Source of the DNA: Patescibacteria group bacterium
Lineage (GTDB): Bacteria > Patescibacteriota > Patescibacteriia > UBA9934
Length of the DNA stretch: 64,000 bases
NCBI GenBank assembly: GCA_041660165.1
Contig: JBAZWW010000003.1
Coordinates: 68,352-132,351, forward strand
Direction: 5' to 3'
Positions 30,987-64,000 of this stretch are shown here, one piece after another. Numbering within the stretch: position 1 is the first letter of the stretch; each line of letters starts with the position of its first letter. The notes beneath the pieces were generated by a model. That model did not search any database. It saw nothing but the letters and a program-made list of their open reading frames with translations, and was not told where the DNA came from. Made by a program: the position numbers and the translations under genes.

Positions 30987-31036
30987 GCAGTTAGGTTTTT
31001 AATGGTGTATACTCTCAGTAAGAATTAATTATAACT

Positions 31037-32177: not shown

Positions 32178-32350
32178 GATGCCTCCAAGGGGTGCGGATT
32201 TCAGCGAGACATGACGGAGAGCTTATGGGCCTTCCGTCCTGTCTGCAGTAGATCCGGCCTCCCCTCAATGAAGAAGGGAGACACGGGAGCCTCGCGTGTG
32301 GGCTCATCGATGACGTACCGTAGGGACGAGGCTCGGCCTCGTCCTTGTCG

Positions 32351-33109: not shown

Positions 33110-33243
33110 GTTTACCTCGCGCTTGGGTGGTCGGTCCTAGGCTCAGCAATCGGACAGTCCGACGGCTTTGCCCAGACCCTTTAGAATAGCAAAAAAATGG
33201 GTTTTTGTCAATGTTTCAAAGAGGGTGTTTCTTGGCTAATCTA

Positions 33244-33272
33244 TTGACATTTTTGAAAATTTGGGGTATTCT
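33244..33272 (+). promoter_or_regulatory. sigma70-like promoter (TTGACA-17-TATTCT) in the AT-rich divergent region
   Basis: TTGACA at 33244-33249 and TATTCT at 33267-33272; the only AT-rich stretch in the island. Confidence 0.45.
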
Positions 33273-33338
33273 CTTTTGTCTTCCTCCCCGTGCTTGCACA
33301 AGGAGGAATGACCGTCTTGGTTAGGAATACCGTTCAAC

Positions 33339-35129: not shown

Positions 35130-35226
35130 GTCCTGCCCGTAGGGGAAACGGGAAGGGCCTCGCAACGGCCGGATGACATGAGCAGAAATGCTTATGACAA
35201 CCGGTCGTTTTCTAATTTAGAGAGAG

Positions 35227-36675
35227 GTGGGTTATACTTTCCCCATGTCTTCAGCCCTCGCCAAAAACTCAGCTTTACAGGTAGGGGGAAAGCTTCTCGG
35301 CACCCTTTTTGGCCTAGTGACTTTTTATTTACTTCTTCAGTATTTCGGAACTGCAGGCTACGGGCTGATCACGACAGCCATCACCTACGTGACAATTTTT
35401 GGCGTAATTGTTGATTTTGGCCTGACGCTCACTACCACGCAGATGATTTCTGAGCACGGGGCCAATGAGGAAAAGATTTTGGGGAACTTGCTGGCGCTTC
35501 GCGTGCTTACGGCATTGGTCTTTCTTTCTATCGCCCCAATTTCCGCCATCTTTGTTCCCGGCGTGAAGGACGTCCTTGTCCTAGTCTCAATTATTACGGC
35601 TACCACGTTCTTCGCTTCCGTGGCGCAGACATTCATTGGCGTTTTTCAGAAGCGCCTCGCCCTTGGCATCCCTGTTCTTGGAGAAATGCTGAACCGCTTG
35701 GTGGCGCTTGTCCTTATCATTCTAGTTGGTACCGCACATTTAGGGCTGGCCGCTTCGGCGGTTGCCTTTACCATTGGCAATTTTGTACAGTTTGCGCTCA
35801 TGCTTCTTGGCACGGCCCGTTACGTGAAACTTCGTCCCCGGCTGGAATGGAAAGTATGGCGAGAGATAATCGTGCGGAGCTGGCCGATTGGCGTGTCTAT
35901 TTTCTTTAACCTTTTGTACTTGAAGGGCGATATTTTGTTCATGGCTTTTTTCCACCGGAGTTTCACGGAAATTGGCCAGTACGGTTCTGCATATAAGGTG
36001 GTGGATGTAATGACCATGATTCCTGTGACGTTTATGGGTCTCATGCTCCCGCTTCTCTCCGTTGCCTGGAGCGAGAAGAACCGAGAGAAATTCGATCGTC
36101 ATTTACAACAGACGTTTGATATCTTTGCCATGATCGCTATTCCGTTTGCGGTCGGCTCTATTCTCCTTGGCGTACCGGTTATGACCGCCGTGAAGCCTGA
36201 TCTTATTCTGGCCGGCCAAGTGCTGAGCGTGCTTGGCCCCGCCTCCGCCGTAGTGTTTTTCAATTCGCTCTACGGCCACGCGGTAGTGGCTGTGAAGCGC
36301 CAGCGTGTTATGCTATTAGGCTACTGTTTTGTGGCCGTGGTTGCCATTTTGGGCTACGTTCTTTACATTCCTCTTTACGGCGCCTGGGCCGCCGCCTGGG
36401 TAACGCTTATTTCAGAGTCATTGATTGGCCTGTGTTCATTTGCTGTCGTTGCTTCCGCTACTAGGCGCTGGCCTAACCTTCTCTCTCTTGGCCGAGCATT
36501 GATCGCTACGGCAGTCATGTCCGCCTCGATTCTCCTCATTCCTGGTCTTCCTATTCTGGTCGAGCTACCACTCGCTATCATGGTGTACGCTCTCGCCCTC
36601 GTGGCTCTTGGGGGTCCAAAACCCAAGCACGTGATGGCCCTGTTTATGCCTGATAAGCCATCCGTCGAGGTTTGA
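35227..36675 (+). CDS. Wzx-type polysaccharide flippase (MOP superfamily)
   Basis: 482 aa, about 12-14 TM helices; polysaccharide-biosynthesis-protein-like N-terminus. Confidence 0.7.
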   Translation: MGYTFPMSSALAKNSALQVGGKLLGTLFGLVTFYLLLQYFGTAGYGLITTAITYVTIFGVIVDFGLTLTTTQMISEHGANEEKILGNLLALRVLTALVFLSIAPISAIFVPGVKDVLVLVSIITATTFFASVAQTFIGVFQKRLALGIPVLGEMLNRLVALVLIILVGTAHLGLAASAVAFTIGNFVQFALMLLGTARYVKLRPRLEWKVWREIIVRSWPIGVSIFFNLLYLKGDILFMAFFHRSFTEIGQYGSAYKVVDVMTMIPVTFMGLMLPLLSVAWSEKNREKFDRHLQQTFDIFAMIAIPFAVGSILLGVPVMTAVKPDLILAGQVLSVLGPASAVVFFNSLYGHAVVAVKRQRVMLLGYCFVAVVAILGYVLYIPLYGAWAAAWVTLISESLIGLCSFAVVASATRRWPNLLSLGRALIATAVMSASILLIPGLPILVELPLAIMVYALALVALGGPKPKHVMALFMPDKPSVEV

Positions 36676-36822: not shown

Positions 36823-38031
36823 ATGCCGAAGTTCAAAGACTTTCTCATTCTTCTCTTGGCCGTTTTGCCAACTTATCTTTTGCGTTTTCATCTTGGGCCG
36901 GTGCCAACTACTGTGCTCGAAATATATATATTGTTGATTATTGGGTACTGGTTTATTTTTGAGCAGGGTTATCGGTTAGATTTCTTGCGAACAATGGGCG
37001 CGTACCGGGTGCCATTCCTACTTCTCCTCGCTACTTCATGTTTTGCCGTGGCCGTGGCGCCGGATCCGATCTCGGCACTCGGCACCTGGAAGGCATTTTA
37101 TGTCGAGCCGATTTTGTTGTTTTTCGTTTTTCGTTCAACGTTCCTCGCGCGCGAGGATTGGACGCTCGCCCTTGGCGCTCTTGGCATCTCGGTGATTTCT
37201 ATTTCGATCTTTGCCGTTTTCCAACGAGTGACGGGCCTCGGCATTCCGGTGCCATGGGATATCGAGCTTCGAGCAACCTCGATCTTTGATTTCCCGAACG
37301 CCGTTGGCTTATTTGTCGGTCCGGCGGTTGCCGTGTTTGTCGTGCTCGCTGTAGACAAGGCTCGAGCACTCCGGGAACGAGTATTTTTCGGCATCTCAGC
37401 CATGTTCGGTGTCATCGCGATTGTTCTCTCGCAAACCGAGGCGCTATTCATTGCCTTGCCGGTAGCGTTTCTGTTCTCGCTTTTGCTGTCGAGCGCCCCG
37501 AAGAAGCTCAAGCTCGGCATCATTGGCGCGAGCATTTTCCTTGGCGTCATCGCCTTTGCGGGCAGTTCGACCGTTCGTGAGAAGCTGCTGCTTGAAGACC
37601 TTTCCGGTCAGGTTCGCCGTTCACAGTGGACGGAAACACTCGCCCTTCTAAAAGATCATCCCATTTTTGGCGCTGGCCTCCAGGGCTATCCCGCTGTTTT
37701 TGCTAAGTACCATGACCCGCGTCTGTACGAAATCTTCCAGTACCCGCATAACATTTTGCTGAATTTTTGGGTTGAGCTTGGCTTCCTTGGCGTGATCACG
37801 CTCGTTGTTTTCATTCTTTCAGTTCTTCAGGTGACATATATGCGCCGGACAGACATTTTTAGCCTCGTAGCCTTTGCCGGACTCGCCACCATGTGTATCC
37901 ACGGTCTGGTTGATGTGCCATTTTTCAAGAATGATCTGGCGGTACTGACGGTGTTCTTGTTGGCCCTGAGCTCGACCTCCTCTGGCTCCTCCTTGGAAAG
38001 GAGGAGGATCACTTATGACCCTGATCTATAA
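36823..38031 (+). CDS. O-antigen ligase/polymerase-like (Wzy_C) membrane protein
   Basis: Multi-TM with a central periplasmic loop; motifs SQTEALFIALP and FGAGLQGY; the C-terminal tail SSLERRR is encoded by the hairpin at 37987-38007. Confidence 0.65.
   Translation: MPKFKDFLILLLAVLPTYLLRFHLGPVPTTVLEIYILLIIGYWFIFEQGYRLDFLRTMGAYRVPFLLLLATSCFAVAVAPDPISALGTWKAFYVEPILLFFVFRSTFLAREDWTLALGALGISVISISIFAVFQRVTGLGIPVPWDIELRATSIFDFPNAVGLFVGPAVAVFVVLAVDKARALRERVFFGISAMFGVIAIVLSQTEALFIALPVAFLFSLLLSSAPKKLKLGIIGASIFLGVIAFAGSSTVREKLLLEDLSGQVRRSQWTETLALLKDHPIFGAGLQGYPAVFAKYHDPRLYEIFQYPHNILLNFWVELGFLGVITLVVFILSVLQVTYMRRTDIFSLVAFAGLATMCIHGLVDVPFFKNDLAVLTVFLLALSSTSSGSSLERRRITYDPDL
37987..38007. repeat. palindromic hairpin CTCCTCC-TTGGAAA-GGAGGAG (family A variant, left flank of DUF559 gene 1)
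   Basis: Perfect 7-bp stem; loop identical to the 63561-63577 copy upstream of the second DUF559 gene. Confidence 0.6.
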
Positions 38032-38410
38032 CCCATCATGGAGCATTGAACGGAGAAAGGAGCTTCGGATGAGAGCAACATTCGCTGAAATTGTGCTTTG
38101 GAATCTTTTGAGAAATAGGCAACTCATGAATGTGAAGTTTCGTCGGCAGTATGGTGTAGACGGGTACATTGTCGATTTTTATGCTGCCCAATTGAAATTT
38201 GCAATTGAGCTTGATGGGGCCGTTCACGATACTGAAGAGGCAAGAAGATACGACCAAATTAGAGACGAGCACTTGAGGGGAATCGGCATCGAAATACTAC
38301 GATTACGAAACGAGGAGGTTGTACTGGGGCAGGAGTCAGCTCTCAAGCGAATCACTGAAGCGATGCGCTCTCGTCAGGCGCGTTACCCCTCCTTACCAAG
38401 GAGGGGATAG
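38015..38410 (+). CDS. DUF559 (Vsr/restriction-endonuclease-like) domain protein
   Basis: Aligns from Met1 with the second DUF559 protein at 63608 (M-T-x-I-x-N-x-x-W-S-(I/L)-E-R-R-(K/R)-(E/D)-L-R, FRRQYG, (I/L)-(I/V/T)-D-F-Y, ELDG); the C-terminal tail RYPSLPRRG is encoded by the hairpin at 38386-38406. Confidence 0.7.
   Translation: MTLIYNPSWSIERRKELRMRATFAEIVLWNLLRNRQLMNVKFRRQYGVDGYIVDFYAAQLKFAIELDGAVHDTEEARRYDQIRDEHLRGIGIEILRLRNEEVVLGQESALKRITEAMRSRQARYPSLPRRG
38386..38406. repeat. palindromic hairpin CCCCTCC-TTACCAA-GGAGGGG (family A variant, right flank of DUF559 gene 1)
   Basis: Perfect 7-bp stem; loop in inverted orientation relative to the left-flank copy. Confidence 0.6.
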
Positions 38411-38433: not shown

Positions 38434-40320
38434 ATGCTCCCTCTTCTCAAACGCGCCTTTTCAGGTTTTCTTTTGCTGGTCACGCTCCTTCTTGGCGTCC
38501 CTTTTACGGCTTTTGCCTCGAGTATTCCTTATTCAGCTCTACGCATAACCACCACCGGCGGGGGGAATATCACTTTGGCGCCGGGGGAGGTGAAGAATAT
38601 TGCCGTTTCTTTTCAAAACAAGGGTTCGCAGACGTGGAAAAATGATGGCAACGGCTACATTTCGCTTTATACCTACGGCCCAAAGTACCGGGCGAGTGTT
38701 TTTGACCCAGGTACCTGGCTCACGCCCTCGCAGGTGAAGCGGATGGGGGAGGAAGGCGTGAAGCCCGGCGCCACGGGCACATTTTTGTTCAGCTTGAAAG
38801 CGCCAAAGACCCTTGGCACATACAAAGAAACTTTCGCCCTGGCGTCTGAGAATATCAATTGGGTTACGGGAGGTGACTTCACTTTGAATATCACCGTGCA
38901 AGCGTCGAGTACTGCCAATGCGCCAGCTGTAGACCCCCGCCCGGACGATCCGGTCGGACGGGCTTCCTCACGTCAGGGTCTGGTTCCCGTTTCCACCGTC
39001 GCTCCCGATGCCTCTATTGGCTACTCAGCCAGTCTGGTCACCCAAACCGCTTCCAAAATGAAGGTCCTGGCTAAGAAAACAATCTCATTTTCGGCCGTTA
39101 TTCAGAACACGGGAACAAAGACATGGAAGAACATTGGGCTCTCGTCTTCAGCCATGAACATTGCTTCTGGGTCGAGTGATTTTAGGAACAGCACATGGTC
39201 TGGCAATCAGGTTGCCCTCCTCTCGCAAACAGTGAAGCCTGGCGCTACGGCCACGGTTCAGTTTTTCTTCACCTCGCCCAGCGTCAACGGAACACATACC
39301 GCGAAGTTTCAGATTACTGCAGACGGCATCAGTATTCCTGACAGCTTCGTGACCATTCCCGTTGAAGTAACCGGCGGATCGGCTGAAGCACTCGACGCCC
39401 CATTAGAAAGCGGGGTTTCCAACCCCTCCTCCGTGCCGGCCGCACTGATAACTGAACCAACTATCCGCGTGGGCGTGTTGATTGTGGACGAGGAGACAAA
39501 AGACGAGGCGGTCATCACCTCATTTGAAAGCGATTTTGATTTAATTGATACAGATGGCACGATCCTTGGTTCTTATCCAAGAGGGAAAGAGATCCGGACG
39601 GCATGGGATGGAGCGAATTATCTCTATAACGACGGTGCACACAAAAAGTCCTCGAAACCGCTCCGTTTCGTTCCAAAGACGCCAAACGCAGTCATGACCA
39701 TTACAAATTTTGATCGTCGGCTCACTCGCGGAACCTCGTTCGCAAACAACACTTTTAGAAACGTACTCGAACTCCGCTACAACACGCCGAATAATCGCAC
39801 TTGGGTTATAAATGAACTCCCGCTCGAATATTATTTACGAGGATTGGCTGAAACGTCTGATTCCTCGCCCGTTGAATTTCAGAAAGCGTTGTTAACCGCG
39901 GCCAGGACATACGCTTTTTATCACTGGACGCACAGCACTAAGCACAGAGCCGAAGGATTCCACGTAGACGCTTACCAAGACCAGGTGTACTGGGGCTATG
40001 ACCAGGAGGCCAGGACTCCGCGTATTACCGGAGGCGTGCAGGCCACGCGCGGTCAGATTGTCACGTACAACGGTGATACCGCCGTCACCTCATTCTTTTC
40101 TCGCTCGGATGGCAGAACTCGCAACTGGTCAGAAGTTTGGGGCGGAAACGTTCCGTATGCCAAATCCGTCCCCGTGCCGTGTGACGTTGGCAAGACTTTG
40201 TGGGGCCACGGCGTAGGCATGTCCGCTTCCGGCGCTCTCTGCATGGCCAAAGACGGTCAGGATTGGCAATCCATTCTCAAATATTTCTACACCGGCGTTG
40301 ATATTTCACAACGCTGGTAA
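38434..40320 (+). CDS. SpoIID/LytB-domain cell-wall protein with N-terminal Ig-like repeats
   Basis: Signal peptide; two TWKN-containing Ig-like repeats; C-terminal SpoIID/LytB-like region (NELPLEYYLRG...YWGYDQE...LWGHGVGMS). Confidence 0.7.
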   Translation: MLPLLKRAFSGFLLLVTLLLGVPFTAFASSIPYSALRITTTGGGNITLAPGEVKNIAVSFQNKGSQTWKNDGNGYISLYTYGPKYRASVFDPGTWLTPSQVKRMGEEGVKPGATGTFLFSLKAPKTLGTYKETFALASENINWVTGGDFTLNITVQASSTANAPAVDPRPDDPVGRASSRQGLVPVSTVAPDASIGYSASLVTQTASKMKVLAKKTISFSAVIQNTGTKTWKNIGLSSSAMNIASGSSDFRNSTWSGNQVALLSQTVKPGATATVQFFFTSPSVNGTHTAKFQITADGISIPDSFVTIPVEVTGGSAEALDAPLESGVSNPSSVPAALITEPTIRVGVLIVDEETKDEAVITSFESDFDLIDTDGTILGSYPRGKEIRTAWDGANYLYNDGAHKKSSKPLRFVPKTPNAVMTITNFDRRLTRGTSFANNTFRNVLELRYNTPNNRTWVINELPLEYYLRGLAETSDSSPVEFQKALLTAARTYAFYHWTHSTKHRAEGFHVDAYQDQVYWGYDQEARTPRITGGVQATRGQIVTYNGDTAVTSFFSRSDGRTRNWSEVWGGNVPYAKSVPVPCDVGKTLWGHGVGMSASGALCMAKDGQDWQSILKYFYTGVDISQRW

Positions 40321-45669: not shown

Positions 45670-46553
45670 AAAAAACTACGCCAAAGAAGATTGTCATCAT
45701 TGGGGGAGGAACTGGCACGGCCACCGTCCTCAAAGGACTGCGCCAGTATCCGCTTGAGCTTTCAGCCGTGGTTTCAATGGCTGATGACGGCGGTTCGACG
45801 GGAATCCTTCGGCGCGAGCTTGGCATTTTACCGGTTGGGGATATTCGCCAATGCCTGCTCGCGCTTTCAGACGCCGAGGATTCCGTGAAGGAACTATTCG
45901 GTTATCGCTTCGCCGAGGGGAGTCTCTCAGGACACAGCGCGGGCAATCTTCTCCTCGCCGCGCTCGTGAAATCTACGGGGGATTTCGAGGAAGCATTGGC
46001 CGTTGCCTCGAGAATGCTCGACATAAAGGGCGAAGTCATTCCCGTAACGCTCGATTTGACCACGCTCGGCGTTATTCATGGGAGTGATCGAGTGAAAGTG
46101 ATGGGCGAGCATGTGATTGATGACGGACTCGTGCTCAACCAACCGCGAGAATTCTTCCTTGAGCCCCGCGCGCAGATCAGCAGTCGAGCTCGAACCGCCA
46201 TCCTCGACGCCGATGTGATCGTGATCGGCCCCGGCTCGCTCGCCACCTCGCTCATACCAGCACTCATTGTAGAGGGAGTGCGCAAGGCGATTGGCGAGTC
46301 TAAGGCGAAGATCATCTATAACGTAAACCTCGCCCCAACGCCGGGGCAGACGGAGGGGTTCTCGGTAGCCGATTACGTGAAAGAGATCGAGTCATACTTG
46401 CCCCGCAAGATAGATTTTGTGACGAGCGGGGACGCGCTCAGGGATCCCTCGAAAGTAGAGAAAAAGGCTGGCGATCTCCTTGTCAGAAGCAGTGTTCGGC
46501 ATAATCCGGAGGCGCTTGGCCGGGTCATTATGGAATATATTGAGGCGCTATGA
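45666..46553 (+). CDS. YvcK/CofD-like (UPF0052, gluconeogenesis-factor family) protein
   Basis: KIVIIGGGTG...MADDGGSTG signature. Confidence 0.8.
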   Translation: MKKTTPKKIVIIGGGTGTATVLKGLRQYPLELSAVVSMADDGGSTGILRRELGILPVGDIRQCLLALSDAEDSVKELFGYRFAEGSLSGHSAGNLLLAALVKSTGDFEEALAVASRMLDIKGEVIPVTLDLTTLGVIHGSDRVKVMGEHVIDDGLVLNQPREFFLEPRAQISSRARTAILDADVIVIGPGSLATSLIPALIVEGVRKAIGESKAKIIYNVNLAPTPGQTEGFSVADYVKEIESYLPRKIDFVTSGDALRDPSKVEKKAGDLLVRSSVRHNPEALGRVIMEYIEAL

Positions 46554-47698
46554 AGATTTTTATTGATTTTGACCACACGCTAACCCGGGGCCGGGAGTTT
46601 GGGGATGCCATTTTGGGCGAACTGGGCGGGGAGTCAGCGGAAATTTTGCGCACCGCGCTTCGGGATTTTAGGCAAACGCATGATTTTACGTTGGAAGCCG
46701 TTTCTCAGCTCTTTGAACAGTTCGGCTTTCCGCCTGAGCGAACGATCAGTATGTATGAAGCGTATGCCAAGCGGATGGAGGAGTTTTTGGCGCCAGATGC
46801 CCATGAATTTCTGTCCGCTTTGAAGGCATTGGGCCACGAGCTGATACTCCTCACGCGTTCTCCTGACGTGGAAACATGGCAACGGCCAAAGGTGCTGGCG
46901 TCAGGGCTGAGTGAATATTTTACTGGCATTGAGATTACGAGCGGAGCAAAAGTGGACGTGATAGAGATGCTCGGCCACCAAGAGCCGTTTATATTTATTG
47001 ATGATCTCCCAAAGGAAACGGAAGAAATGCAAGCACGTTTTCCGGTGGCGCTTTGTATTACGCATGAAAAAGGCGCCCCGCTCATGGAGCATCTTTTCAC
47101 TATTGCCGGTTTTGCTAATCGTGACGAGCTAAAAACGCTTCCGTTGCCGATTAATACCGCGATCAACATCGGAAATCTTTCACTCGAGGACGGCGAACAG
47201 CTGGCCGTAACGTTTGGCCTCGACAAAAAAGCAGTCGACGCTTTCAAAAAGCGTTCGTGTGATGAAACGGATGAAGAGCTCATGCGTTTTACGAGTGATC
47301 ACGAGCGGATTTGCCTTGGTTCGTATGAAACTTGGTATGCCAAGGAGCGCTACCCGTTTGGCCTCATGAGCAAGTCCGGCGAACTGGCCGGCATTGCCTG
47401 GTTTGGCCCAAAGGCGTTTCCCTCGATTGAAAAAGCGGGGTTTCAAACCCCGCCCATGACCGCGAACGCCGAGTGGCATACCTTTGCTGTCCGCATGTAT
47501 AACCCGTATCGCGGAAAACGGCTGGCTTTCCCCTTTGCTTCCTTTGTTTTTAAGGCTTACAATACCTTTCTTCCTCCGCATCCGCTTTGGCTTGATACAA
47601 GTCCGGAAAACGCTGGCGCCATTCGGTTATACTCAAAGCTAGGATTCATCGAGCATGGACATCGAGAGGATGGCCGAGTAGTCATGATCCGCCCGTAA
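46550..47698 (+). CDS. HAD-like hydrolase fused to a GNAT acetyltransferase
   Basis: N-terminal DxD motif FIDFDHTL; C-terminal GNAT-like region; contains in-frame palindrome B at 47435-47453. Confidence 0.55.
   Translation: MKIFIDFDHTLTRGREFGDAILGELGGESAEILRTALRDFRQTHDFTLEAVSQLFEQFGFPPERTISMYEAYAKRMEEFLAPDAHEFLSALKALGHELILLTRSPDVETWQRPKVLASGLSEYFTGIEITSGAKVDVIEMLGHQEPFIFIDDLPKETEEMQARFPVALCITHEKGAPLMEHLFTIAGFANRDELKTLPLPINTAINIGNLSLEDGEQLAVTFGLDKKAVDAFKKRSCDETDEELMRFTSDHERICLGSYETWYAKERYPFGLMSKSGELAGIAWFGPKAFPSIEKAGFQTPPMTANAEWHTFAVRMYNPYRGKRLAFPFASFVFKAYNTFLPPHPLWLDTSPENAGAIRLYSKLGFIEHGHREDGRVVMIRP
47435..47453. repeat. palindromic hairpin GCGGGGTT-tca-AACCCCGC (family B, copy 1, in-frame in the HAD-GNAT gene)
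   Basis: Perfect 8-bp stem; encodes KAGFQTPP. Confidence 0.6.
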
Positions 47699-47700
47699 CT

Positions 47701-48981
47701 ATGCCTCGCGTTAAACTGACCGAATTTCGGGCGAAGAAGCTCATCCTCGGCAACACCTACGCCGGTGTTTCTTTTTGTGGTGTGGTGCGTTCTCCCTCTT
47801 TCCAAGAGGGCGTCAGTACGGGTGGGCGTTCCCCCTCTTTCCAAGAGGGTGTCAGGACGGATGGGCGCTCCCCCTCTTTCCAAGAGGGGGCTACGGGGGA
47901 GTCGGTGGTGCGTTGGGTGGTCAAAGTCGATCAAGGTATCAAAAAGCGCTTCAAGCAAGGCCTCGTCAAAGTGAATATCTCGGCGGACGAGATTTTGAGC
48001 GCTGTCGAGCCTTGGAAGGCAAAGGGCTTCTCGCAATTCATTGCCGAGCCGTTTGTCGAGCACTCGGCGAACGAGGAACAGTATCTTTCGCTTGAGCGCG
48101 TGCGTGAGGGGGTTCGCATTTTGCATACCGCCGAGGGCGGAGTTGATATTGAGGCGCATCCGGAAGCTGTCCGATCATATGTCGTCGAAAATGCGGGCGA
48201 GATTTCATTGATCGCTAAAGAGACGAAGATTCCGCAGGCATTCCTTGAACAGTTAATTTCAACTTTTAACGATAAGATGTTTGCATTTCTTGAGATCAAT
48301 CCGCTTGTGATCAAGGGTGATCGAGTCTATTTGCTCGACGCTGCCGTGCTCGTGGACAGCGCAGGAATCTTCTTTGTGCACGGCGCGTGGACGGCGAGTG
48401 ATCTTGTTCTGCCCACCGCCAAGCATCCGGCTGAAGCGCGGGTCGAGGAATTAGCGAAAACCACTCCCGCCTCGCTCAAATTGTCCGTGCTGAATCCTGA
48501 CGGAGCATTGTTTTTCTTGTTGTCTGGCGGTGGGGGATCAATCGTGATCGCAGATACCGTCATGAACAAAAGCGGGGTTTCAAACCCCGCCCACGGCGCG
48601 GGCCAACTGATCGGCAACTACGGCGAGTACAGCGGAGGGCCCACGCGCGAAGAGACGTTTTTGTACACTCGCGAGGTACTCGGTTTGTTGCTCGGATCGA
48701 GCGCGCCGAAGAAGGCGCTCATAATTGCCGGGGGAGTGGCAAACTTTACGGATGTGAAGCGGACGTTTGCAGGCATCATTGACGCGTTGACCGAGCGCTC
48801 AGCCGAACTCCGTAAGCAGGGCGTTAAGGTGTTTGTGCGCCGGGGCGGACCGAATGAACAGGCGGGACTGGCCATGATGCGTGAGTTCCTGACCGCCGAG
48901 GGATTGCTCGGTGCCGTTTATGGATCAGAGGCGGTGATGACTAAGGCGGTAGAAGACGCCATAGCTTTTGTAAAAGTATGA
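47701..48981 (+). CDS. ATP-grasp subunit resembling ATP-citrate lyase beta / succinyl-CoA synthetase beta (AclB-like)
   Basis: ATP-grasp plus CoA-ligase fold; near the N-terminus carries three tandem 13-aa in-frame repeats (SPSFQEGxxTxGR) from element A, and a family B hairpin at 48572-48590. Confidence 0.65.
   Translation: MPRVKLTEFRAKKLILGNTYAGVSFCGVVRSPSFQEGVSTGGRSPSFQEGVRTDGRSPSFQEGATGESVVRWVVKVDQGIKKRFKQGLVKVNISADEILSAVEPWKAKGFSQFIAEPFVEHSANEEQYLSLERVREGVRILHTAEGGVDIEAHPEAVRSYVVENAGEISLIAKETKIPQAFLEQLISTFNDKMFAFLEINPLVIKGDRVYLLDAAVLVDSAGIFFVHGAWTASDLVLPTAKHPAEARVEELAKTTPASLKLSVLNPDGALFFLLSGGGGSIVIADTVMNKSGVSNPAHGAGQLIGNYGEYSGGPTREETFLYTREVLGLLLGSSAPKKALIIAGGVANFTDVKRTFAGIIDALTERSAELRKQGVKVFVRRGGPNEQAGLAMMREFLTAEGLLGAVYGSEAVMTKAVEDAIAFVKV
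47784..47903. repeat. three tandem 39-bp copies of palindromic element A (GGTGCGTT-CCCCCTCTTTCCAAGAGGGGG-CTACGGGGGAGTC)
   Basis: Direct reading of the sequence; in-frame within the AclB-like CDS. Confidence 0.85.
48572..48590. repeat. palindromic hairpin GCGGGGTT-tca-AACCCCGC (family B, copy 2, in-frame in the AclB-like gene)
   Basis: Identical 19-mer, read in a different frame (KSGVSNPAHG). Confidence 0.6.
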
Positions 48982-50874: not shown

Positions 50875-51942
50875 TTAGCGCGAGATCTCGAGAATCCCCG
50901 TTGGCACCCCGAGCGTCTCAAGCATTTGCTTCGCCTTCTCCTCGCTGGCCGGCATCATTTGGCGTTTTTGGAGGTAGAGCGGTTCGAATTTGAGCGTCAG
51001 TTTGTCAGCCTCGACGGTTAAGCGGACAGCCAGCCCGCTTTTTGTAGCTTCCGAGAAATCTTGATCGAACAAGAAATTGCCGAGCGAATAGACGATCGGG
51101 ACATTTTTGTATGTTTCGACGGTTTCAATGACATGCGGATGTCCGCCAATGACGGCGTCTGCGCCAGCGTCAACAAATTGATGCCCCGCAAAGATCTGTG
51201 AGCTGGACGGATTGTGCTGATACTCCACGCCCCAGTGAGGCATAACGATCACGAAATTGCCGGCGGATTTTTCAAGTTTGATGGCCTCGACAATGCCAGC
51301 GGTTGTTTCGTTAAAAGCGTGGTAGCCAATAAAGGCAAAAGTTATTCCGTTCACGGTTTTGTGGGCTACAAACTTTCCGCCTTCCCACGCATCGCCAAAC
51401 GGAGTCATGCCGGCGTTCGTGATTGTTGTCCTGGTGAGCTCCGCGGTTGCCCGGCCATAATCATCAGCATGATTGTTCGACAATGAAAGCAAGTCGAATC
51501 CTTGGGTGGCGAGCATTGAAACATTGCCGGGCGTGGTGTCAAAGTTCATGACGTTTGTTCCTTCGATGTTTTCTTTTTCGCGTACTGTTCCCTCAAAATT
51601 ACCGATAAGCAGGTCACTATTTGAAAGCAAATCTCCAACCTTCGCAAACGGATATTCGGTGCCGTAAAGTTTTATGTATTGCTCCACGTTTCTTGCGAGC
51701 ATAATGTCGCCCACGAATTCAAGAGTCGTGCTCGAGTCGTTCGGTGAGGGCACGATATCCGCCGTAGGGGTCGATCCATGTATCGACCCCGCAGTGACGA
51801 TGCGATCTCCCGCCATGGTCAGATGCGCCCTTCGAGAGATTTCGATGGACGAATTTGCTTTAGAAAACGGCGATACCACAAGAAATCCGATGAGAACGGT
51901 GAGTCCAAGCGCGGTTAACAGTATGGCGAGTTTTGGGGTCAT
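50875..51942 (-). CDS. CapA/PGA_cap-family metallophosphatase-like protein
   Basis: N-terminal TM; motifs FVGDIM, NFEG, NNHADDYG, GGHPHV; carries in-frame element C at 51767-51790. Confidence 0.7.
   Translation of the reverse strand: MTPKLAILLTALGLTVLIGFLVVSPFSKANSSIEISRRAHLTMAGDRIVTAGSIHGSTPTADIVPSPNDSSTTLEFVGDIMLARNVEQYIKLYGTEYPFAKVGDLLSNSDLLIGNFEGTVREKENIEGTNVMNFDTTPGNVSMLATQGFDLLSLSNNHADDYGRATAELTRTTITNAGMTPFGDAWEGGKFVAHKTVNGITFAFIGYHAFNETTAGIVEAIKLEKSAGNFVIVMPHWGVEYQHNPSSSQIFAGHQFVDAGADAVIGGHPHVIETVETYKNVPIVYSLGNFLFDQDFSEATKSGLAVRLTVEADKLTLKFEPLYLQKRQMMPASEEKAKQMLETLGVPTGILEISR
51767..51790. repeat. palindromic hairpin GGGGTCGAT-ccatgt-ATCGACCCC (family C, copy 1)
   Basis: Perfect 9-bp stem; encodes GSIHGSTPTA on the minus strand. 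Confidence 0.7.
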
Positions 51943-51954
51943 GAACGCATAATC

Positions 51955-52662
51955 TTACTCTGTTGGCTCGATAAATTCAAGACTCTTCACGAGTTTTTCG
52001 ATATTCGTTGAAGCGTTTTCAAAATTAACGTCGTCGGCCAGCCGTTCGTCAGACACGATGATGTTGTCAAAAAGTGTGCCGGTGTGGGGGAGAAGGTAAA
52101 CGTTGGCGGATGATGAGCTGACGCTCAATTTTGCTACGGCATTTTTGTCGCTTGTGGCGATACTTTCGCAGGGAGCAGAGCTGATGAGCACTTTGAGGTT
52201 TGTTGGCAGTTCAGACGAAGGTTTTTTTGCGAATGAACAAACGTCAGAAATGTTTTGCCAGTTTGGCCCGGCATCGTAATACCAGCCAAGGTCGCCCCAG
52301 TATGCATTCCGTCCTTCAGGTTTTTCCCTCGACAAATCCATGAACACTTGGCGCGAATTATCGCCGGAGTTCATCGCAGTTTTCGGTAAGAACGTAAGGA
52401 AAAGCCGAGCGCCGTAATGTTCGACCTGGACGGTTCCAAAACTTTTTGGGAATCCAAATCGCAGGCCAAGTTTGGCATTTTCATAAAGCATCGCTTCCGT
52501 TCCGGGTAGTTCGTGGCTTTTACCGGTATTGAAGTCGAGTACTTCCGCAGGCAATGGCACCGGATTCCTGGTGGTCGTCTTCGGGTTAAGGCTGGTCATA
52601 ATCAGCAGAGCCACCCCGGCCAAAACGCCAATAATACCGATCACAAGCGAATAGCGTTGCAT
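51955..52662 (-). CDS. hypothetical membrane-anchored protein
   Basis: Start moved to MQRYSLVIGIIG so it does not overlap tRNA-Gly. Confidence 0.4.
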   Translation of the reverse strand: MQRYSLVIGIIGVLAGVALLIMTSLNPKTTTRNPVPLPAEVLDFNTGKSHELPGTEAMLYENAKLGLRFGFPKSFGTVQVEHYGARLFLTFLPKTAMNSGDNSRQVFMDLSREKPEGRNAYWGDLGWYYDAGPNWQNISDVCSFAKKPSSELPTNLKVLISSAPCESIATSDKNAVAKLSVSSSSANVYLLPHTGTLFDNIIVSDERLADDVNFENASTNIEKLVKSLEFIEPTE

Positions 52663-52707
52663 ATGTTTGCAGTATAACAAAAATACCTCGTTTCCGAGAT
52701 ATTTTTG

Positions 52708-52782
<75 letters not shown>

Positions 52783-52835
52783 AATTCGGTCAAAACTTTA
52801 TCACGCGGGAGTTTGACCGTCAAACAGTGGGAATC

Positions 52836-53126
52836 TTAGCGGCTATACGCTCTTCGTGCTATGGGCTGTCTGCCTACCAGCTGGTCAACTATTTCTCTAG
52901 TTTCAACGGTTGTTTGAGAAACGGTGTGCAGGATGTGTTCGTGGATGCTCAGCGCCTCCCTCGTTTCTTTTCGAAAGTCGCGGAGTTCTTGCATGATGGC
53001 ATTTTGACTATTTTGTAGTGCGTCCAGGGCGGTTTCGGTTGTTTGTTTTTTCATATTTTTGTCTCGATGATTATTTCGAGTATAGCACCTTGAAGGGGCC
53101 GGGCAACCGGCCCCCTTCTTGTGCAA
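52836..53126 (-). CDS. small hypothetical protein
   Basis: ORF only; probable start at the internal Met MKKQTTE. Confidence 0.3.
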   Translation of the reverse strand: MHKKGAGCPAPSRCYTRNNHRDKNMKKQTTETALDALQNSQNAIMQELRDFRKETREALSIHEHILHTVSQTTVETREIVDQLVGRQPIARRAYSR

Positions 53127-53132
53127 AAAGCG

Positions 53133-53357
53133 TTATGCCGCTATCGGTTCGGCGGTTGGTTTTCCTTCTCCGCGCATCTGTTTGCGCAACCAGGAGATGC
53201 CGGAATTATTTCCACGAATGTACTGCTCCTTGGAGATCTGGAAGACGAAGTTGTAGATTTCATGACTGATATCTTCCGGCATGTCGAATTTTGACATGAG
53301 GGTGTTGAAACGATCTTCTAAAACTTCGAACCACGGCTTCTTGTTTGTCTTGTCCAT
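53133..53357 (-). CDS. small hypothetical protein
   Basis: ORF only. Confidence 0.3.
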   Translation of the reverse strand: MDKTNKKPWFEVLEDRFNTLMSKFDMPEDISHEIYNFVFQISKEQYIRGNNSGISWLRKQMRGEGKPTAEPIAA

Positions 53358-53410
53358 ATTGTTGATGTAGGGGCCGATTTATATATCGGCCCAGATTATG
53401 ATTATTTCAT

Positions 53411-55261
53411 TTACGTAACGAACGGTAACGTGATCCCCTTAGCCTTGGCCAACCAATAGCCAAGCGCCCCCAAACTGGTAGTGAGTAACCCGCCTCCCAC
53501 CCACGGAATTTGTTTCGTGGGCGGGGGAGCGATGAGATTGTGATTCCTCTCCCCGCTAGGGGAGGAAGTAGGTAGGGGGGTTGTCATATCTGCCGTAGGG
53601 GTCGATCCATGTATCGACCCCGTAAGCACGCTCATCCCCTTCGTCTCCGTTATGGCGAGCGTCCACGCTCCGCTCTTCACTCGCGCCACGCCCGTCACTG
53701 CAATACGGTCGCCGAAGGCCAGGTCAGCAAAGTTGATGGCCACATGCGGAGCAGATGCTATGGCAAGGGTGTCGCCATTTTCGAGTTCCACCGTTACTCC
53801 GCCTTTGGCCATGTCCGTGACCGAGCCTTCCAGACTGAAGTATCCGCCTTGGACAGCTTCGTCGAGTGAGTTAAGCGAGTCTGGCGCCAGCGCGTCCTGG
53901 CCGGTTGTTTTAATGTCCAACCGTTTGCTTATCTTGAGACGCACATAGCCGTCTTTTTGTTGAACCACGCCGGTAACCTGCACGTGTGCCATGTATTTCA
54001 GCTTTGGCCAGTCGGCTTTGTTGAAATACACTTCAAGTCCATTTAGATACATCAGCTGTTTGCCGAATACTCCCGGCAGGCCAACCACTACGCCATCAAC
54101 GGTCACAATTTCTCCATCCGGGACATCGCCGAGTTCTGAGACGTCGAGTACCGTCAGGGTGGTTCCTCTCCCCGTGAGGGGAGAGGCTAGGTGAGGGGTA
54201 GCGGTGGCCGGGGGCAGGGGGGAGGCTACGCTGTCCGCCACCGTTGTTGCGAGCTCCAGCCGAACAGGGCTTGGGGCGGGGGCATCAGGGTTAGTTCCTT
54301 GAGCTTGGTCTTGAACGGCCGGATCAGGGTTGATAACGGCAGGAGTGTTGATTGTCGTCTCATATGTTGTATTCGTTGTGTCGTAGGGGTCGATCCATGT
54401 ATCGACCCTCGTATTAATGGCGAGCGGAGTGGGATCAGATTCAATCCACGTTCCGTCGGGTTGTTTAGCGAGTGATTTTCCTTTTTTCGGCGCCGTTTTG
54501 CCGGTGTACGATATCGCGTCAATCGTTGCTCCGGTTCCATCGAACAGGAAGATTGAGTCGCCATCGTTATTGAGTTTGCCCTTCGGGTTTTGTAGGACAA
54601 AGAAGGCGTGCGCCGGCAGAATCTGATCGGGCAACGGAGTTTTACTTGTCGTCGCATCTTTAACCGTCCACCCGCCGAGAGAGATTTCGTCTTCGGTTGT
54701 GTTGAGAAGCTCAATCCATTCCACACCATCGGCCGGATCAGATACGAATTCATTGATGAGGACGGAGCCAGTGGGATACGGGATTGGCCCGGGTGCCACG
54801 GGCGGTACCACGGGCGCGGTTGATGGCGCGGGCGTTAGGGTGGTCAATGGGGGTGCCGTAGGGGTCGATCCATGTATCGACCCCGCCTCGGTAGGCGTGA
54901 TGATCGGCGCGGGCGCCTCAATCGGCAATGGCTCGATGACCGTGATTGGCGCAACGGGTTCTGGTTCAGGTTCCGGTGCAACTGGTTCCGGTGCCGGCAA
55001 TGGGGCCGTCTGCACCGGACACAGCAGGCACGGATCCCCGGCGTCATCCCCTCCTTGTGAGGGAGGCTCGCCCGTAGGTTGCGAAGTTACGCCCGAGGAG
55101 GGCAGAGGGATGGAGGGGGCCAAGGGGGTGGCTACGTCTCCACCGGTCCCAGCGCTTTCGACGGTTTCGACGATCGCGGTTTCGGATGCGTCTTCTGCTC
55201 TCGCGGGTAGAGGAGACACAAAGGGCAAGAGGGTGAGGATTCCCAAGAGTCCATAGTACAT
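53411..55261 (-). CDS. secreted lamin-tail-domain (LTD) protein, Pro/Thr-rich, with a C-terminal membrane anchor
   Basis: LTD pattern VLINEFVSDPADGVEWIELLNTTEDEISLGGWTVKD...LNNDGDSIFLFD; signal peptide; C-terminal TM; contains three family C and two family D hairpin elements in-frame. Confidence 0.65.
   Translation of the reverse strand: MYYGLLGILTLLPFVSPLPARAEDASETAIVETVESAGTGGDVATPLAPSIPLPSSGVTSQPTGEPPSQGGDDAGDPCLLCPVQTAPLPAPEPVAPEPEPEPVAPITVIEPLPIEAPAPIITPTEAGSIHGSTPTAPPLTTLTPAPSTAPVVPPVAPGPIPYPTGSVLINEFVSDPADGVEWIELLNTTEDEISLGGWTVKDATTSKTPLPDQILPAHAFFVLQNPKGKLNNDGDSIFLFDGTGATIDAISYTGKTAPKKGKSLAKQPDGTWIESDPTPLAINTRVDTWIDPYDTTNTTYETTINTPAVINPDPAVQDQAQGTNPDAPAPSPVRLELATTVADSVASPLPPATATPHLASPLTGRGTTLTVLDVSELGDVPDGEIVTVDGVVVGLPGVFGKQLMYLNGLEVYFNKADWPKLKYMAHVQVTGVVQQKDGYVRLKISKRLDIKTTGQDALAPDSLNSLDEAVQGGYFSLEGSVTDMAKGGVTVELENGDTLAIASAPHVAINFADLAFGDRIAVTGVARVKSGAWTLAITETKGMSVLTGSIHGSTPTADMTTPLPTSSPSGERNHNLIAPPPTKQIPWVGGGLLTTSLGALGYWLAKAKGITLPFVT
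53544..53566. repeat. palindromic hairpin TTCCTCTCCCC-gct-AGGGGAGGAA (family D, copy 1)
   Basis: Near-perfect stem; encodes PSGERN in the LTD protein. Confidence 0.55.
53598..53621. repeat. family C hairpin, copy 2
   Basis: GGGGTCGATCCATGTATCGACCCC, identical to copy 1. Confidence 0.7.
54165..54186. repeat. palindromic hairpin CCTCTCCCC-gtg-AGGGGAGAGG (family D, copy 2)
   Basis: Perfect 9-bp stem; encodes ASPLTGRG in the LTD protein. Confidence 0.6.
54386..54408. repeat. family C hairpin, copy 3
   Basis: GGGGTCGATCCATGTATCGACCC. Confidence 0.7.
54861..54884. repeat. family C hairpin, copy 4
   Basis: GGGGTCGATCCATGTATCGACCCC. Confidence 0.7.
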
Positions 55262-60781: not shown

Positions 60782-61729
60782 ATGACCAAGAAACGCCTTG
60801 CCATTTTAACTGGCGGGACAAGCGCTGAGCGTGACATTGCTCTGGCGTCCGCAAAAACAGTCGCTGATCTGCTTGCCGAACGGTATGACATAACCAAGTT
60901 CGATTTTCCAAGTGAGATTGACGCATTCCTAGCGCAACGAGATACCTTCGATGTCGCAATCCCCATCTTCCACGGTAAGGGCGGGGAAGACGGAACCGTG
61001 CAGGGCTTCTTGAAAACGCTCGGCGTGCCATTTCTATTCTCGGACGTCACCGCACATGCCATTGGCATGGACAAGACCTTGGCGAAAACCGTTGTGTCTA
61101 CCGTCGGTCTTCATACGCCGAGCTCGATCGTTCTGACTCGTGTTGAGTTCCTTCAGGGTGGCTCCCCCTCTTTCCAAGAGGGGGCCAGGGGGAGTCTCGG
61201 GATGGTCAGGGTGGTCAAGCCTCTGGATTCCGGCAGTACCCTCGGCATCACCATCGTCCGCTCTTCCAACGACCTACAGTCAGCCCTCGAAAACGCTTTT
61301 AAGCATTCCGATAAAGTGCTCATTGAGGATTTCATTGGAGGCGACGAATTCACCGTGGCTGTGATCGACGAACATGGCGAATCAATCGCCTTGCCCGTGA
61401 TTCAAATCGTCTCGCCGAACGGGATATACGATCACTCCGCCAAGTACGGCCCACAGCCAGCCGAGAAACTTTGCCCGGCGCCGATTAGCGAAGATCTCAC
61501 TTTACGCCTTCAAGAATCCGCCGTCACCGCGCACAAAGCCATCGGCGCCAGGCATTTGTCGCGGACAGATTTCATCGTTGACCGAGAGGGGACAATTTGG
61601 TTCCTTGAAATCAACACCATTCCCGGCCAATCCGTCTTATTTCCAAAAGCCGTAAAAGCATCAGGCCGTGATTTTGCAGAGATATTTGCCGACTGGATTG
61701 AGTCTGTCTACCTTGCCAAATCCTCCTGA
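60782..61729 (+). CDS. ddl: D-alanine--D-alanine ligase
   Basis: Ddl N-terminus RLAILTGGTSAERDIALASAK, ATP-grasp motifs, EINTIPG; carries a 39-bp in-frame insertion of element A (encoding GGSPSFQEGARGS). Confidence 0.9.
   Translation: MTKKRLAILTGGTSAERDIALASAKTVADLLAERYDITKFDFPSEIDAFLAQRDTFDVAIPIFHGKGGEDGTVQGFLKTLGVPFLFSDVTAHAIGMDKTLAKTVVSTVGLHTPSSIVLTRVEFLQGGSPSFQEGARGSLGMVRVVKPLDSGSTLGITIVRSSNDLQSALENAFKHSDKVLIEDFIGGDEFTVAVIDEHGESIALPVIQIVSPNGIYDHSAKYGPQPAEKLCPAPISEDLTLRLQESAVTAHKAIGARHLSRTDFIVDREGTIWFLEINTIPGQSVLFPKAVKASGRDFAEIFADWIESVYLAKSS
61157..61196. repeat. palindromic element A inserted in-frame in ddl
   Basis: GGTGGCTCCCCCTCTTTCCAAGAGGGGGCCAGGGGGAGTC. Confidence 0.85.
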
Positions 61730-63535: not shown

Positions 63536-63545
63536 TGCGACGCGC

Positions 63546-63604
63546 GACTCCCCCGTAGCCCCCTCTTGGAAAGAGGGGGAGCGCACACCCTGACAGCACG
63601 CACC
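63546..63604. repeat. palindromic element A (inverted orientation, left flank of DUF559 gene 2)
   Basis: GACTCCCCCGTAGCCCCCTCTTGGAAAGAGGGGGAGCGCACACC..GCACGCACC is the reverse complement of element A. Confidence 0.8.
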
Positions 63605-63607: not shown

Positions 63608-64000
63608 ATGACGGAAATATTCAACCAAAAATGGAGCCTGGAGAGGCGCAGAGATTTACGAAATGGAATGACCAAACCGGAGATCTTGCTGTGGTTAGCT
63701 ATCAAGGCAGATCAACTTGGCGTTCGTTTTAGAAGGCAGTACGGAATTGGTCGGTACATAACCGATTTTTATGTCCCGCGATTACGACTCGTGGTTGAAT
63801 TGGACGGCTCGCAGCATTACACCCCGGAAGGTAGGCGATATGATGAGATTCGAACCAAATCTTTCGAAAGCATCGGCATCCAGGTCATCCGTTTCGCAAA
63901 CGACGAAGTTTGCAGAAATCTGCACGGCGTTCTTCAGCGTCTCCGCATTGCGATAGCGGACCGTCAGAATGGTCAGGTGCGTTCCCCCTCTTTCCAAGAG
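63608..64000 (+). CDS. DUF559 (Vsr/restriction-endonuclease-like) domain protein, 3'-truncated by the window end
   Basis: ATG at 63608; MTEIFNQKWSLERRRDLR...FRRQYGIGRYITDFY...VVELDG, homologous to the protein at 38015; the ORF continues into element A (…QNGQVRSPSFQE). Confidence 0.6.
   Translation, partial: MTEIFNQKWSLERRRDLRNGMTKPEILLWLAIKADQLGVRFRRQYGIGRYITDFYVPRLRLVVELDGSQHYTPEGRRYDEIRTKSFESIGIQVIRFANDEVCRNLHGVLQRLRIAIADRQNGQVRSPSFQE
63976..64000. repeat. palindromic element A (forward orientation, right flank of DUF559 gene 2; truncated by the window end)
   Basis: GGTGCGTTCCCCCTCTTTCCAAGAG. Confidence 0.8.

Follow-up and report, generated by a model that had tools for sequence, protein, structure and literature searches.

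In-frame palindromic repeats in a Patescibacteria group bacterium as a probable GTAG-tagged REP family with a RayT-like transposase

A stretch of 64,000 nucleotides from a Patescibacteria group bacterium (contig JBAZWW010000003.1, positions 68,352 to 132,351; hereafter the window) contains a short palindromic repeat that lies mostly inside protein-coding genes, namely a CapA-family gene and the gene of a lamin-tail-domain (LTD) protein. Here, we propose that the copies of this repeat very probably form a family of repetitive extragenic palindromic (REP) elements that carry the tetranucleotide GTAG, are associated with a RayT-like transposase and survive in genes as linker codons. REPs are palindromes of 20-50 nt preceded by a conserved tetranucleotide, usually GTAG, and are present at tens to thousands of sites dispersed over a genome, predominantly outside genes (PMC3733652; PMC8266576). 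The parts of the first source that describe the families give stems of 5-13 bp, loops of 2-20 nt, subfamilies related by complementary changes, several families per genome and documented intragenic units (PMC3733652), the latter including units among the GTAG REPs of Opitutus terrae (Di Nocera, De Gregorio & Rocco 2013, PMC3733652).

Repeat unit, tag and conservation of the DNA

Copies were sought by pattern search across the 64-kb window, with shuffled sequences as control. The 24-nt palindrome GGGGTCGATCCATGTATCGACCCC occurs exactly at 51767, 53598 and 54861, and with one mismatch (final C>T) at 54386, against a chance expectation of 0.00 in the shuffles. The four copies of the original prediction are therewith confirmed, as is their placement, with one copy in the CapA gene and three in the LTD gene, all within the minus-strand open reading frames (ORFs) 50875-51942 and 53411-55261. 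The family is nevertheless larger than the four copies proposed, as a scan allowing up to nine mismatches returned exactly five copies and none further. The overlooked fifth copy is diverged and reads GTAGGGGCCGATTTATATATCGGCCC at 53367-53392 (53358-53394 in the repeat search); it sits between genes, 18 nt beyond the LTD stop codon. All five copies span 3.2 kb and share one orientation, with GTAG on the plus strand and directly 5' of the stem in each of them (Table 1).

The conserved flanks described earlier are real and form part of the GTAG tag that defines REPs, the 5' flank reading (G/T)CCGTA or GTCGTA on the plus strand. When the copies are aligned on the coding strand, the same flank appears as a conserved 3' TACGGC, and because this equals GCCGTA on the plus strand, the conserved unit comprises GCCGTA followed by the palindrome of 24 nt and measures about 30 nt, the length of ten codons. 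It is built from (G)CCGTAG, a GC-rich stem of 9 bp, a 6-nt loop and the return arm. The perfect 9-bp stem that had been ascribed to all four genic copies is found in three of them, while the 54386 copy has a perfect stem of 8 bp, and the stem of the fifth copy differs by a compensatory change (T>C / A>G). As single-stranded DNA, the unit is predicted to form a hairpin with a dG of -9.8 kcal/mol (z = -3.9), and it is thus a small palindrome within the REP size range (20-50 nt) that can fold into a stem-loop. On direct reading, the G-TAG creates a stop codon in one of the six frames of the unit, and the other five are open.

The tag is not confined to this one hairpin. Among the perfect hairpins of the window with stems of at least 7 bp, GTAG/CGTA was found at 9 of 116 flank positions, compared with 0.27 expected, and these tagged flanks are spread over four different hairpin sequences: the present family, its GCCGAT variant, CCCCCTCTT-GGA-AAGAGGGGG and GGACGAGGC-TCG-GCCTCGTCC. 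All four fold as single-stranded DNA (z ~ -4). Perfect hairpins with stems of at least 8 bp and loops of 3-8 nt number 34 in the window, whereas shuffles contain 2-10. In a census of the loci of this lineage, GTAG or CTAG stood at 24 of 30 sites and GTTG at 6 of 30. The GC skew is positive over nearly the whole window, and 7 of the 8 GTAG-tagged hairpins have GTAG on the plus strand, a weak hint that the active strand is the lagging-strand template, if the skew marks the leading strand. IS200/IS605 elements prefer the lagging-strand template. At gathering thresholds, Rfam returned only four tRNAs in the window and no RNA family on the elements.

Each genic copy had been thought to encode GSIHGSTPT(A/T). 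This holds for three copies, which encode (A/T)GSIHGSTPTA, but is wrong for the 54386 copy, which reads RVDTWIDPYD because it is read one frame over. As this copy lies in another frame, what is conserved is the DNA and not the peptide. The 24-nt sequence is kept across two reading frames and, in diverged form, in one intergenic copy, and in relatives the unit is found in further frames and in the opposite orientation (GVDTGVDP, GVDPCIDP). The stem occurs as GTCGAT/ATCGAC, GTCGAC/GTCGAC and GCCGAT/ATCGGC, i.e. as subfamilies of complementary changes in which a T/A pair has become C/G, turning GAT/ATC into GAC/GTC and GTCGAT/ATCGAC into GCCGAT/ATCGGC.

A metagenome-wide scan for the palindrome, with the tag left out and mismatched Y/R combinations permitted by the pattern, returned 30 loci with GC of 0.39-0.69. 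Read from the listing of hits, GTA directly adjoins the palindrome in about 18 of the 30 loci, and mismatched Y/R stems are absent among these GTA-flanked hits, but present in the untagged hits L068, L077 and L090. Together, the reading frames, the orientation and the compensatory stem changes appear to exclude a repeat maintained at the peptide level.

The proteins that host the unit are consistent with insertion at permissive positions. The CapA protein of the window is 100% identical to P0001, labelled 'Patescibacteria group bacterium', and its copy lies in the linker between the N-terminal transmembrane helix and the PGA_cap domain. The LTD protein has a signal peptide and a C-terminal anchor, and is thus a secreted and membrane-anchored protein whose copies sit in Pro/Thr-rich linkers. 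For both proteins, alignments of homologs are gapped at the insert points. The encoded peptides would then be neutral linker filler.

A RayT-like transposase carrying the repeat

Within the window, no RayT was found among 20 ORFs by Pfam, and none by tblastn with three probes, the latter being the only screen applied to about 45 smaller or other ORFs. Searches by tblastn with RayT probes were, in addition, run on loci that carry the motif. Sequences of the E. coli RayT and of IS608 TnpA served as bait only, and every match was confirmed by Pfam, NCBIfam or PDB search. RayT-like ORFs were recovered in five loci (L013, L073/L086, L075 and L065). The distance from the motif to the start of the ORF is about 100 nt in L013, assigned to Faecousia, and about 200 nt in L073/L086; in L075 the motif is within a degraded RayT-like ORF. 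The L065 ORF encodes 208 amino acids, among them MPNHIHG as HUH motif and YIRRNPKKW with the tyrosine. Two copies of exactly the present family lie in-frame within it, oriented oppositely to each other and read as VGVDPCIDP and GSIHGSTPTA.

A protein 87% identical to the L065 enzyme, P0201, carries the JGI name 'REP element-mobilizing transposase RayT' and is encoded on a contig of 256,942 bp. The record of the window's CapA protein P0001 likewise gives 256,942 bp as its longest contig, so that P0201 and the window apparently belong to the same contig and genome. The gene of P0201 (L094) contains GCCGTAGGGGTCGATCCATGTATCGACCCCG, with 100% identity over 32 nt to window copies 1 and 2, and a second, inverted copy with the loop ACACGG. 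The transposase gene and its cognate REPs would therefore be near each other in one genome, the assignment to one contig being taken from the records. This brings the copy count in the genome to 7 in the 85 kb read, at two loci, and further copies are present in related contigs of the same metagenome.

In the relative with a 366-kb contig (L095), both copies inside the RayT gene are of that genome's own GGGTCGAC-GCATGG-GTCGACCC variant, as are its dispersed copies, and internal and dispersed hairpins therefore change together. Downstream of RayT, L094 and L095 have the same genes, a CBM_4_9 protein of ~2,950 amino acids followed by TSP3_bac and RrnaAD, and in this respect RayT resembles a resident gene, like the housekeeping-style, typically single-copy RAYTs (REP-associated tyrosine transposases). 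About 20 nt upstream of the RayT start lies a further, conserved hairpin, ttacGGATCGAC-ATATGA-GTCGATCCttac (L094 9960-9981, L065 4736-4757), which is related to the REP stem, has TTAC on both sides and could be a regulatory or recognition site.

P0201 is predicted to be a distant RAYT-like HUH/Y1 enzyme. It matches the Pfam family Y1_Tnp (PF01797) with 37.2 bits, against a cut-off of 23 bits, and has the conserved HUH motif (MPNHIHG) and tyrosine (YIRRNP) of the IS200/IS605-type Y1 fold. Its best NCBIfam model is REP_Tyr_transpos with 50.1 bits, followed by IS200 with 24.3 bits, and the best PDB match of the clade profile is 4er8, the E. coli TnpA-REP. For an AlphaFold model (AF2) of P0201 with a pLDDT of 81.9, the top 30 Foldseek matches were all IS200/IS605-family transposases or 4er8, the best query TM-score being that of 4er8_A (TMq 0.50). 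The second REP-encoded segment of the protein falls in a loop (residues 108-119) modelled with a pLDDT < 50.

The embedded REP pair looks general for this RayT clade. Hairpin and inverted hairpin occupy two fixed loop positions of RayT-like genes, in-frame, and the signature G-x(5-6)-PT after the HUH strand was found in 50 of 120 homologs, some with tandem arrays, and VG-x(5-7)-P before this strand in 18 of 120. In the window lineage, the 366-kb relative and Faecousia, the internal hairpins resemble others of the same genome. In the Faecousia RayT, hairpins of the GGGCCGAT/GGGCCAAT type are present in-frame, and the gene is bordered by related GTAG hairpins. A Daviesbacteria RayT, on a contig with a GC of 0.40, has two GC-rich internal hairpins and no dispersed copy in 11.5 kb.

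Scanning genome contigs with GTAGGGGTCGATN6ATCGACCCC gave 58 loci, mostly from Oscillospiraceae and other Clostridia, with the same stem and the loop GCCCAC. The hairpins of these gut metagenome-assembled genomes (L001-L058) read GTAGGGG(T/C)CGAT-GCCCAC-ATCG(A/G)CCCC(TAC), for example at L013 3620-3745 and 4640-4714. They mostly have AT-rich flanks, often have GTAG on both sides and look intergenic, the coding context having been checked in L013 only, where they cluster around and inside the RayT-like gene.

Tentatively, these observations could point to a distinct REPtron layout, although we regard this wider proposal as rather less likely than its opposite. In such a layout, a REP and an inverted REP would lie in-frame in two fixed loops of the transposase, after beta-1 and after the HUH strand, across a broad clade including Patescibacteria (Daviesbacteria, GC 0.40, among them), Oscillospiraceae and others. 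The internal hairpins would match the dispersed copies of each genome, and their persistence as GC-rich islands even where the 11.5 kb read contain no dispersed copy would suggest that they act as master copies or as autoregulatory binding sites of the enzyme. Coding linkers would be the main target of REP spread, with recurrent hot spots at which hairpin families would replace one another.

Gain and loss among relatives and competing explanations

Relatives of three degrees were available for comparison: L059/L060, which are syntenic with 81% nucleotide identity over 47.1-53.2 kb of the window, L092 with an LTD ortholog (P0122) that is 72% identical, and L093 (P0123), which has the same locus on a 366-kb contig at ~50% amino acid identity. 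Three copies, 51767, 54386 and 54861, are absent from close relatives. The CapA copy (51767) is missing from L059, where the window has an extra block of 45 nt, and about 24 nt past this site L059 has a different hairpin, CCTCTCCCAGGATGGGAGAGG, which is not in the window. The 54386 copy is absent from L092, leaving a 33-nt gap, and the 54861 copy is absent from L092/P0122. The 53598 copy, by contrast, is common to the window and L092/P0122, and is absent from P0124, P0125 and P0127.

L093 has six copies of its own GGGTCGAC-GCATGG-GTCGACCC variant, and three of its sites match kinds of site in the window. The GTCGAC variant stands at the LTD alignment position equivalent to 54386, another copy (12164) follows the LTD stop like copy 5, and a third lies in the N-terminal CapA linker. 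The insertion site of the ATP-citrate-lyase-like protein, between the conserved GVSFCG and VVKVDQG, is occupied in the window by three tandem units of the CCCCCTCTT family and in L059 by one reversed copy of the present family (GGGGTCGAT), read as VGVDPCIDP and tagged GTTG. From these ortholog comparisons it follows that units are gained, lost and replaced, and that some sites are reused by different families.

If the copies are REPs with a RayT-like transposase, the unit would fold as single-stranded DNA into a hairpin whose 5' foot carries an unpaired GTAG, the substrate form of REP-associated HUH/Y1 transposases (RAYT/TnpA-REP). RayT would cleave and move the units in this single-stranded form, a role suggested by a correlation between RayT and REPs in the sequences. 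The transposase, or recombination between copies, would add and remove units at permissive and partly recurrent sites, and many insertions would fall in genes because intergenic space is small in the compact Patescibacteria genome. Survivors would be those that keep the frame, contain no stop and lie in disordered linkers, and units could persist in genes because they add about ten stop-free codons to flexible linkers. For the spread and uniformity of the copies, gene conversion or hot-spot replacement is a live alternative.

Several features weigh against assigning the copies to a REP family mobilized by RayT. The known copies are few and clumped, with 5 in 3.2 kb of the window and 2, both inside the RayT gene, in the 20.6 kb around RayT, whereas hundreds of copies, mostly outside genes, are usual for classical REPs. 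In the window 4 of 5 copies, and in L093 4 of 6, are inside intact ORFs, so that the location is not mainly extragenic; this is compatible with a REP, since the class is accepted to include a minority of units within genes. The cognate REPs are inside the transposase ORF and do not flank it, and 20 nt upstream of the L094 RayT only a different hairpin, GGATCGACATATGAGTCGATCC, is present. With its 50.1 bits, P0201 stays below the curated 80-bit cut-off of the NF047646 equivalog and therefore falls outside strict RAYT equivalogs. The window is tied to the RayT contig by protein-cluster records and identical repeats, not by overlapping DNA. Finally, insertion boundaries are unclean, since the gaps relative to other genomes are 45 nt and 33 nt instead of 30, and the 'empty' sites of relatives are too diverged to fix the boundaries. 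Direct repeats of 5 nt flank two copies, ATCGT the one in CapA and AATAC the one at 54386, and are inconsistent at the other copies. A miniature inverted-repeat transposable element, with the terminal inverted repeats of a parent insertion sequence and target-site duplications, does not describe the unit, which is a single hairpin of ~30 nt with no parent element seen.

The best surviving alternative, though an unlikely one, is that the hairpins are REP-like but are not, or no longer, moved by RayT, having spread by gene conversion, slippage or template switching, with RayT itself domesticated and invaded. The clustering of the copies and the presence of different families or lineage-specific variants at the same protein positions in relatives would fit conversion or replacement, the Daviesbacteria RayT has internal hairpins and lacks dispersed copies in 11.5 kb, and the mechanism of REP dissemination is unproven even in E. 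coli (PMC8266576). However, RayT-like genes recur beside the motif in unrelated contigs that were collected by the motif only, RayT-internal and dispersed variants match in two genomes, and GTAG is strictly conserved, the tetranucleotide being needed for TnpA-REP cleavage in the systems studied (PMC8266576).

Far less probable is a role of the 9-6-9 palindromes as core sites of a tyrosine (Xer- or Cre-like) recombinase that varies the LTD protein by in-frame deletion or inversion. Arms of 9 bp around an asymmetric 6-bp spacer resemble recombinase core sites in geometry, the copies cluster in a surface-protein locus, and those at 53598 and 54861, separated by 1263 nt (421 codons), share one frame as direct repeats. 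Against this, the unit is also present in CapA, RayT, an ATP-citrate-lyase-like enzyme and unrelated contigs next to RayT genes, and the two available assemblies contain no deleted or inverted alleles. With no recombinase among the 20 window ORFs scanned, a conserved GTAG on one side only, which is unexpected for a recombinase site, and the association with RayT, the recombinase-site reading was rejected as unsupported.

Similarly improbable, and slightly more so, is a repeat selected in the protein, with GSIHGSTPT(A) serving as a linker, glycosylation or sorting motif and the palindrome being incidental. The GS[IT]HGSTPT frame is used by three of the four genic copies and by many metagenomic ones, the hosts are secreted or anchored, and the peptide is rich in Ser, Thr and Pro like the linkers of its hosts. 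Synonymous positions are, however, also identical over the 24 nt, the RVDTWIDPYD frame and the intergenic copy exist, and the reverse orientation (VGVDPCIDP) occurs in the RayT gene and, in L059, in the gene of the ATP-citrate-lyase-like protein. Moreover, close orthologs do without the copies, and compensatory stem changes in the DNA alter the peptide.

An assembly artefact, in which copies would stem from collapse or chimeric joining at the repeat, a possibility named earlier as a refutation, has a negligible probability in spite of the short-read metagenome origin and the exact 30-nt repeats within 3 kb, given that the ORFs are intact with conserved domains on both sides, that a JGI record (P0121, longest contig 133,816 bp) is 100% identical to the LTD protein over 462 amino acids spanning the 54386 and 53598 copies, that the 53598 copy is also found in L092, at the orthologous position, and that the k-mers used in assembly are typically longer than a repeat of 30 nt.

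Further hairpins of the window and known repeat systems

Coordinates of the repeat copies, other tagged hairpins, transposase genes and host genes are collected in Table 1.

Table 1 Positions of repeat copies, related hairpins and associated genes; window coordinates unless a locus is named.
Feature	Position	Strand	Description
REP copy 1	51761..51790	+	GCCGTA + GGGGTCGAT-CCATGT-ATCGACCCC; in CapA ORF (minus); encodes AGSIHGSTPTA
REP copy 2	53592..53621	+	C-terminal linker of LTD ORF; encodes TGSIHGSTPTA
REP copy 3	54380..54409	+	GTCGTA + GGGGTCGATCCATGTATCGACCCT; 8-bp stem; LTD ORF; read as RVDTWIDPYD
REP copy 4	54855..54884	+	Pro-rich N-terminal linker of LTD ORF; encodes AGSIHGSTPTA
REP copy 5	53364..53392	+	GATGTAG + GGGCCGAT-TTATAT-ATCGGCCC; intergenic
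Host gene 1	50875..51942	-	CapA/PGA_cap family, 355 amino acids; Pfam PF09587, E = 5.7e-55, residues 73-294
Host gene 2	53411..55261	-	LTD protein, 616 amino acids; Pfam PF00932, E = 1.7e-17
RayT P0201 gene	L094 10001-10618		Internal copies 10124-10147 and 10324-10347
Other RayT-like genes with in-frame hairpin pairs	L065 4777-5403; L095 10001-10720; L096 888-1502; L013 3725-4279		
Other GTAG hairpin	32320..32344	+	GTAG + GGACGAGGC-TCG-GCCTCGTCC; palindrome at 32324
Second-family hairpin	63555..63579	+	GTAG + CCCCCTCTT-GGA-AAGAGGGGG; palindrome at 63559
Second-family hairpin	47870..47894	-	GTAG on minus strand; third of three tandem 39-nt units in ATP-citrate-lyase-like ORF

The second hairpin family, CCCCCTCTT-TCC/GGA-AAGAGGGGG, was found at 47778-47903, 61150-61197, 63545-63593 and 63970-64000, with GTAG on two copies and CTGG or CCAG on the others, and is common to the related contigs L079 and L080. 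Its three tandem 39-nt units are in-frame near the N-terminus of the ATP-citrate-lyase-like ORF (RSPSFQEG three times), and another copy is in-frame in a D-Ala-D-Ala ligase as GSPSFQEG, between LQG and LGMVRVVKP. A third family, CCTCTCCCC-(GCTA/GTGA)-GGGGAGAGG, flanked by CTAG or CTGG and not by GTAG, occurs twice in the LTD ORF (53540-53579 and 54159-54198), where it is read in two frames (SSPSGER and ASPLTGRG). A hairpin related to it lies in the CapA linker of L059 (1376-1396), near the site of the window's GGGGTCGAT unit.

Repeats of AAAAAGCGGGGTTTCAAACCCCGC at 39407-39449, 47432-47474 and 48569-48611 look on the minus strand like intrinsic terminators (hairpin plus T-run). Two of them fall inside the plus-strand ORFs 46550-47698 and 47701-48981, and L059 lacks the hairpin at the site aligned with 47435. 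A terminal hairpin, CCCCTCCTT-ACC-AAGGAGGGG, encodes the last residues (YPSLPRRG) of a DUF559 (Vsr-like endonuclease) ORF at 38015-38410.

The GTAG hairpin at 32324 marks the edge of a segment (32001-36000) with a GC of 0.60, compared with ~0.51 elsewhere, in which long ORFs of the two strands overlap, such as 33321-35165 (minus) with 33339-35129 (plus). Translations of the minus strand are rich in Arg, His and Pro and look spurious. Elsewhere, an ORF of 2,696 amino acids (3243-11333) has internal repeats of 300 nt and ~70 nt (4140/8136; 6261/6702/9696), and a run of small paralogous membrane proteins sharing (I/V)YAG(V/F)LWMTA(S/A)G(N/D)(E/D)K(K/R) extends over 28516-31411.

Among known systems, the GTAG REPs share with the present units, as far as the survey's text describes them, a length of 20-40 nt, a stem of 5-13 bp, a short loop, an unpaired terminal GTAG, complementary stem changes between subfamilies, several families in one genome, a position in linkers and termini or 3' of ORFs, and a tag that degenerates to forms of the GTTG type, here in a relative (PMC3733652). 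They differ in that intragenic units are a minority in the survey, compared with 4 of 5 copies in genes here, in that Patescibacteria are outside the survey and copy number here looks low and clustered, and in that stem and loop match no family according to the survey's text descriptions (PMC3733652). With REPtrons, especially the short perfect palindromes of 'group 3' (Corneloup et al. 2021, PMC8266576; Nunvar 2010; Bertels & Rainey 2011), the system has in common an HUH/Y1 transposase-like protein and nearby REPs that match dispersed ones, as well as a gene position kept in two relatives, GTAG before a perfect palindrome and an apparent co-evolution of REP and transposase (PMC8266576). Unlike in a REPtron, the REP pair is placed in two loops of the transposase instead of flanking it, and the protein, with 50 instead of 80 bits, belongs to a distant clade.

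Other small palindromes resemble the unit in part. Rickettsia palindromic elements (RPE), reportedly described by Ogata and colleagues in 2000, are said to be selfish palindromic DNA inserted in-frame in genes. The small dispersed repeats (SDR) of Nostoc and other cyanobacteria, which Elhai and colleagues reportedly described in 2008, are said to be 21-27 nt long, hairpin-capable and mobile and to nest in other sequences; to our knowledge they have no GTAG tag and no known link to a RAYT. By this description, SDR are similar to the present family as very short hairpin repeats, and differ from it by its GTAG tag and RAYT link. The present family is like RPE in being a selfish palindrome in-frame in genes of a small genome and translated at permissive sites. 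It is nonetheless distinct from them, with ~30 nt and GTAG where RPE-1 has ~100-150 bp and RPE-4/6 have a CGTC tag and no transposase, and does not resemble them in sequence. The survey places RPE-4 and RPE-6 among the CGTC REPs (PMC3733652). The subterminal hairpins of IS200/IS605 are related through the enzyme fold, a 5' tetranucleotide 'guide' and recognition of single-stranded DNA (PMC8266576), and are unlike the present units in that no insertion sequence structure is seen here, the synteny of the transposase is kept in two relatives instead of the gene occurring as multiple mobile copies, and a single hairpin replaces paired ends.

Intragenic GTAG REPs (PMC3733652) and the co-evolution of REPs and RAYTs are both already known, and the system described here is distinguished from known ones by four differences: the phylum, the mostly intragenic location, the apparently low and clustered copy number, and the REP pair embedded in the transposase. 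Our literature search found no paper describing a REP/RAYT system in Patescibacteria, and none on RAYTs in the candidate phyla radiation or on REPs inside RAYT genes. Surveys of extragenic flanks only, such as the RAYT survey of Bertels et al. 2017, would miss systems of this kind.

REP-type hairpins offer a single ordinary explanation for the several palindromic families of the window, and imply a way for selfish hairpin DNA to survive even where the genome is very compact, as translated linker codons, with hosts that include essential enzymes such as D-Ala-D-Ala ligase and the ATP-citrate-lyase-like protein. For annotation, the lineage-specific insertions that these units create in proteins are not to be taken for functional motifs. 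Further, the in-frame REP pair and the protein sites reused by different hairpin families provide a testable handle on how RAYTs find and regulate their substrates.

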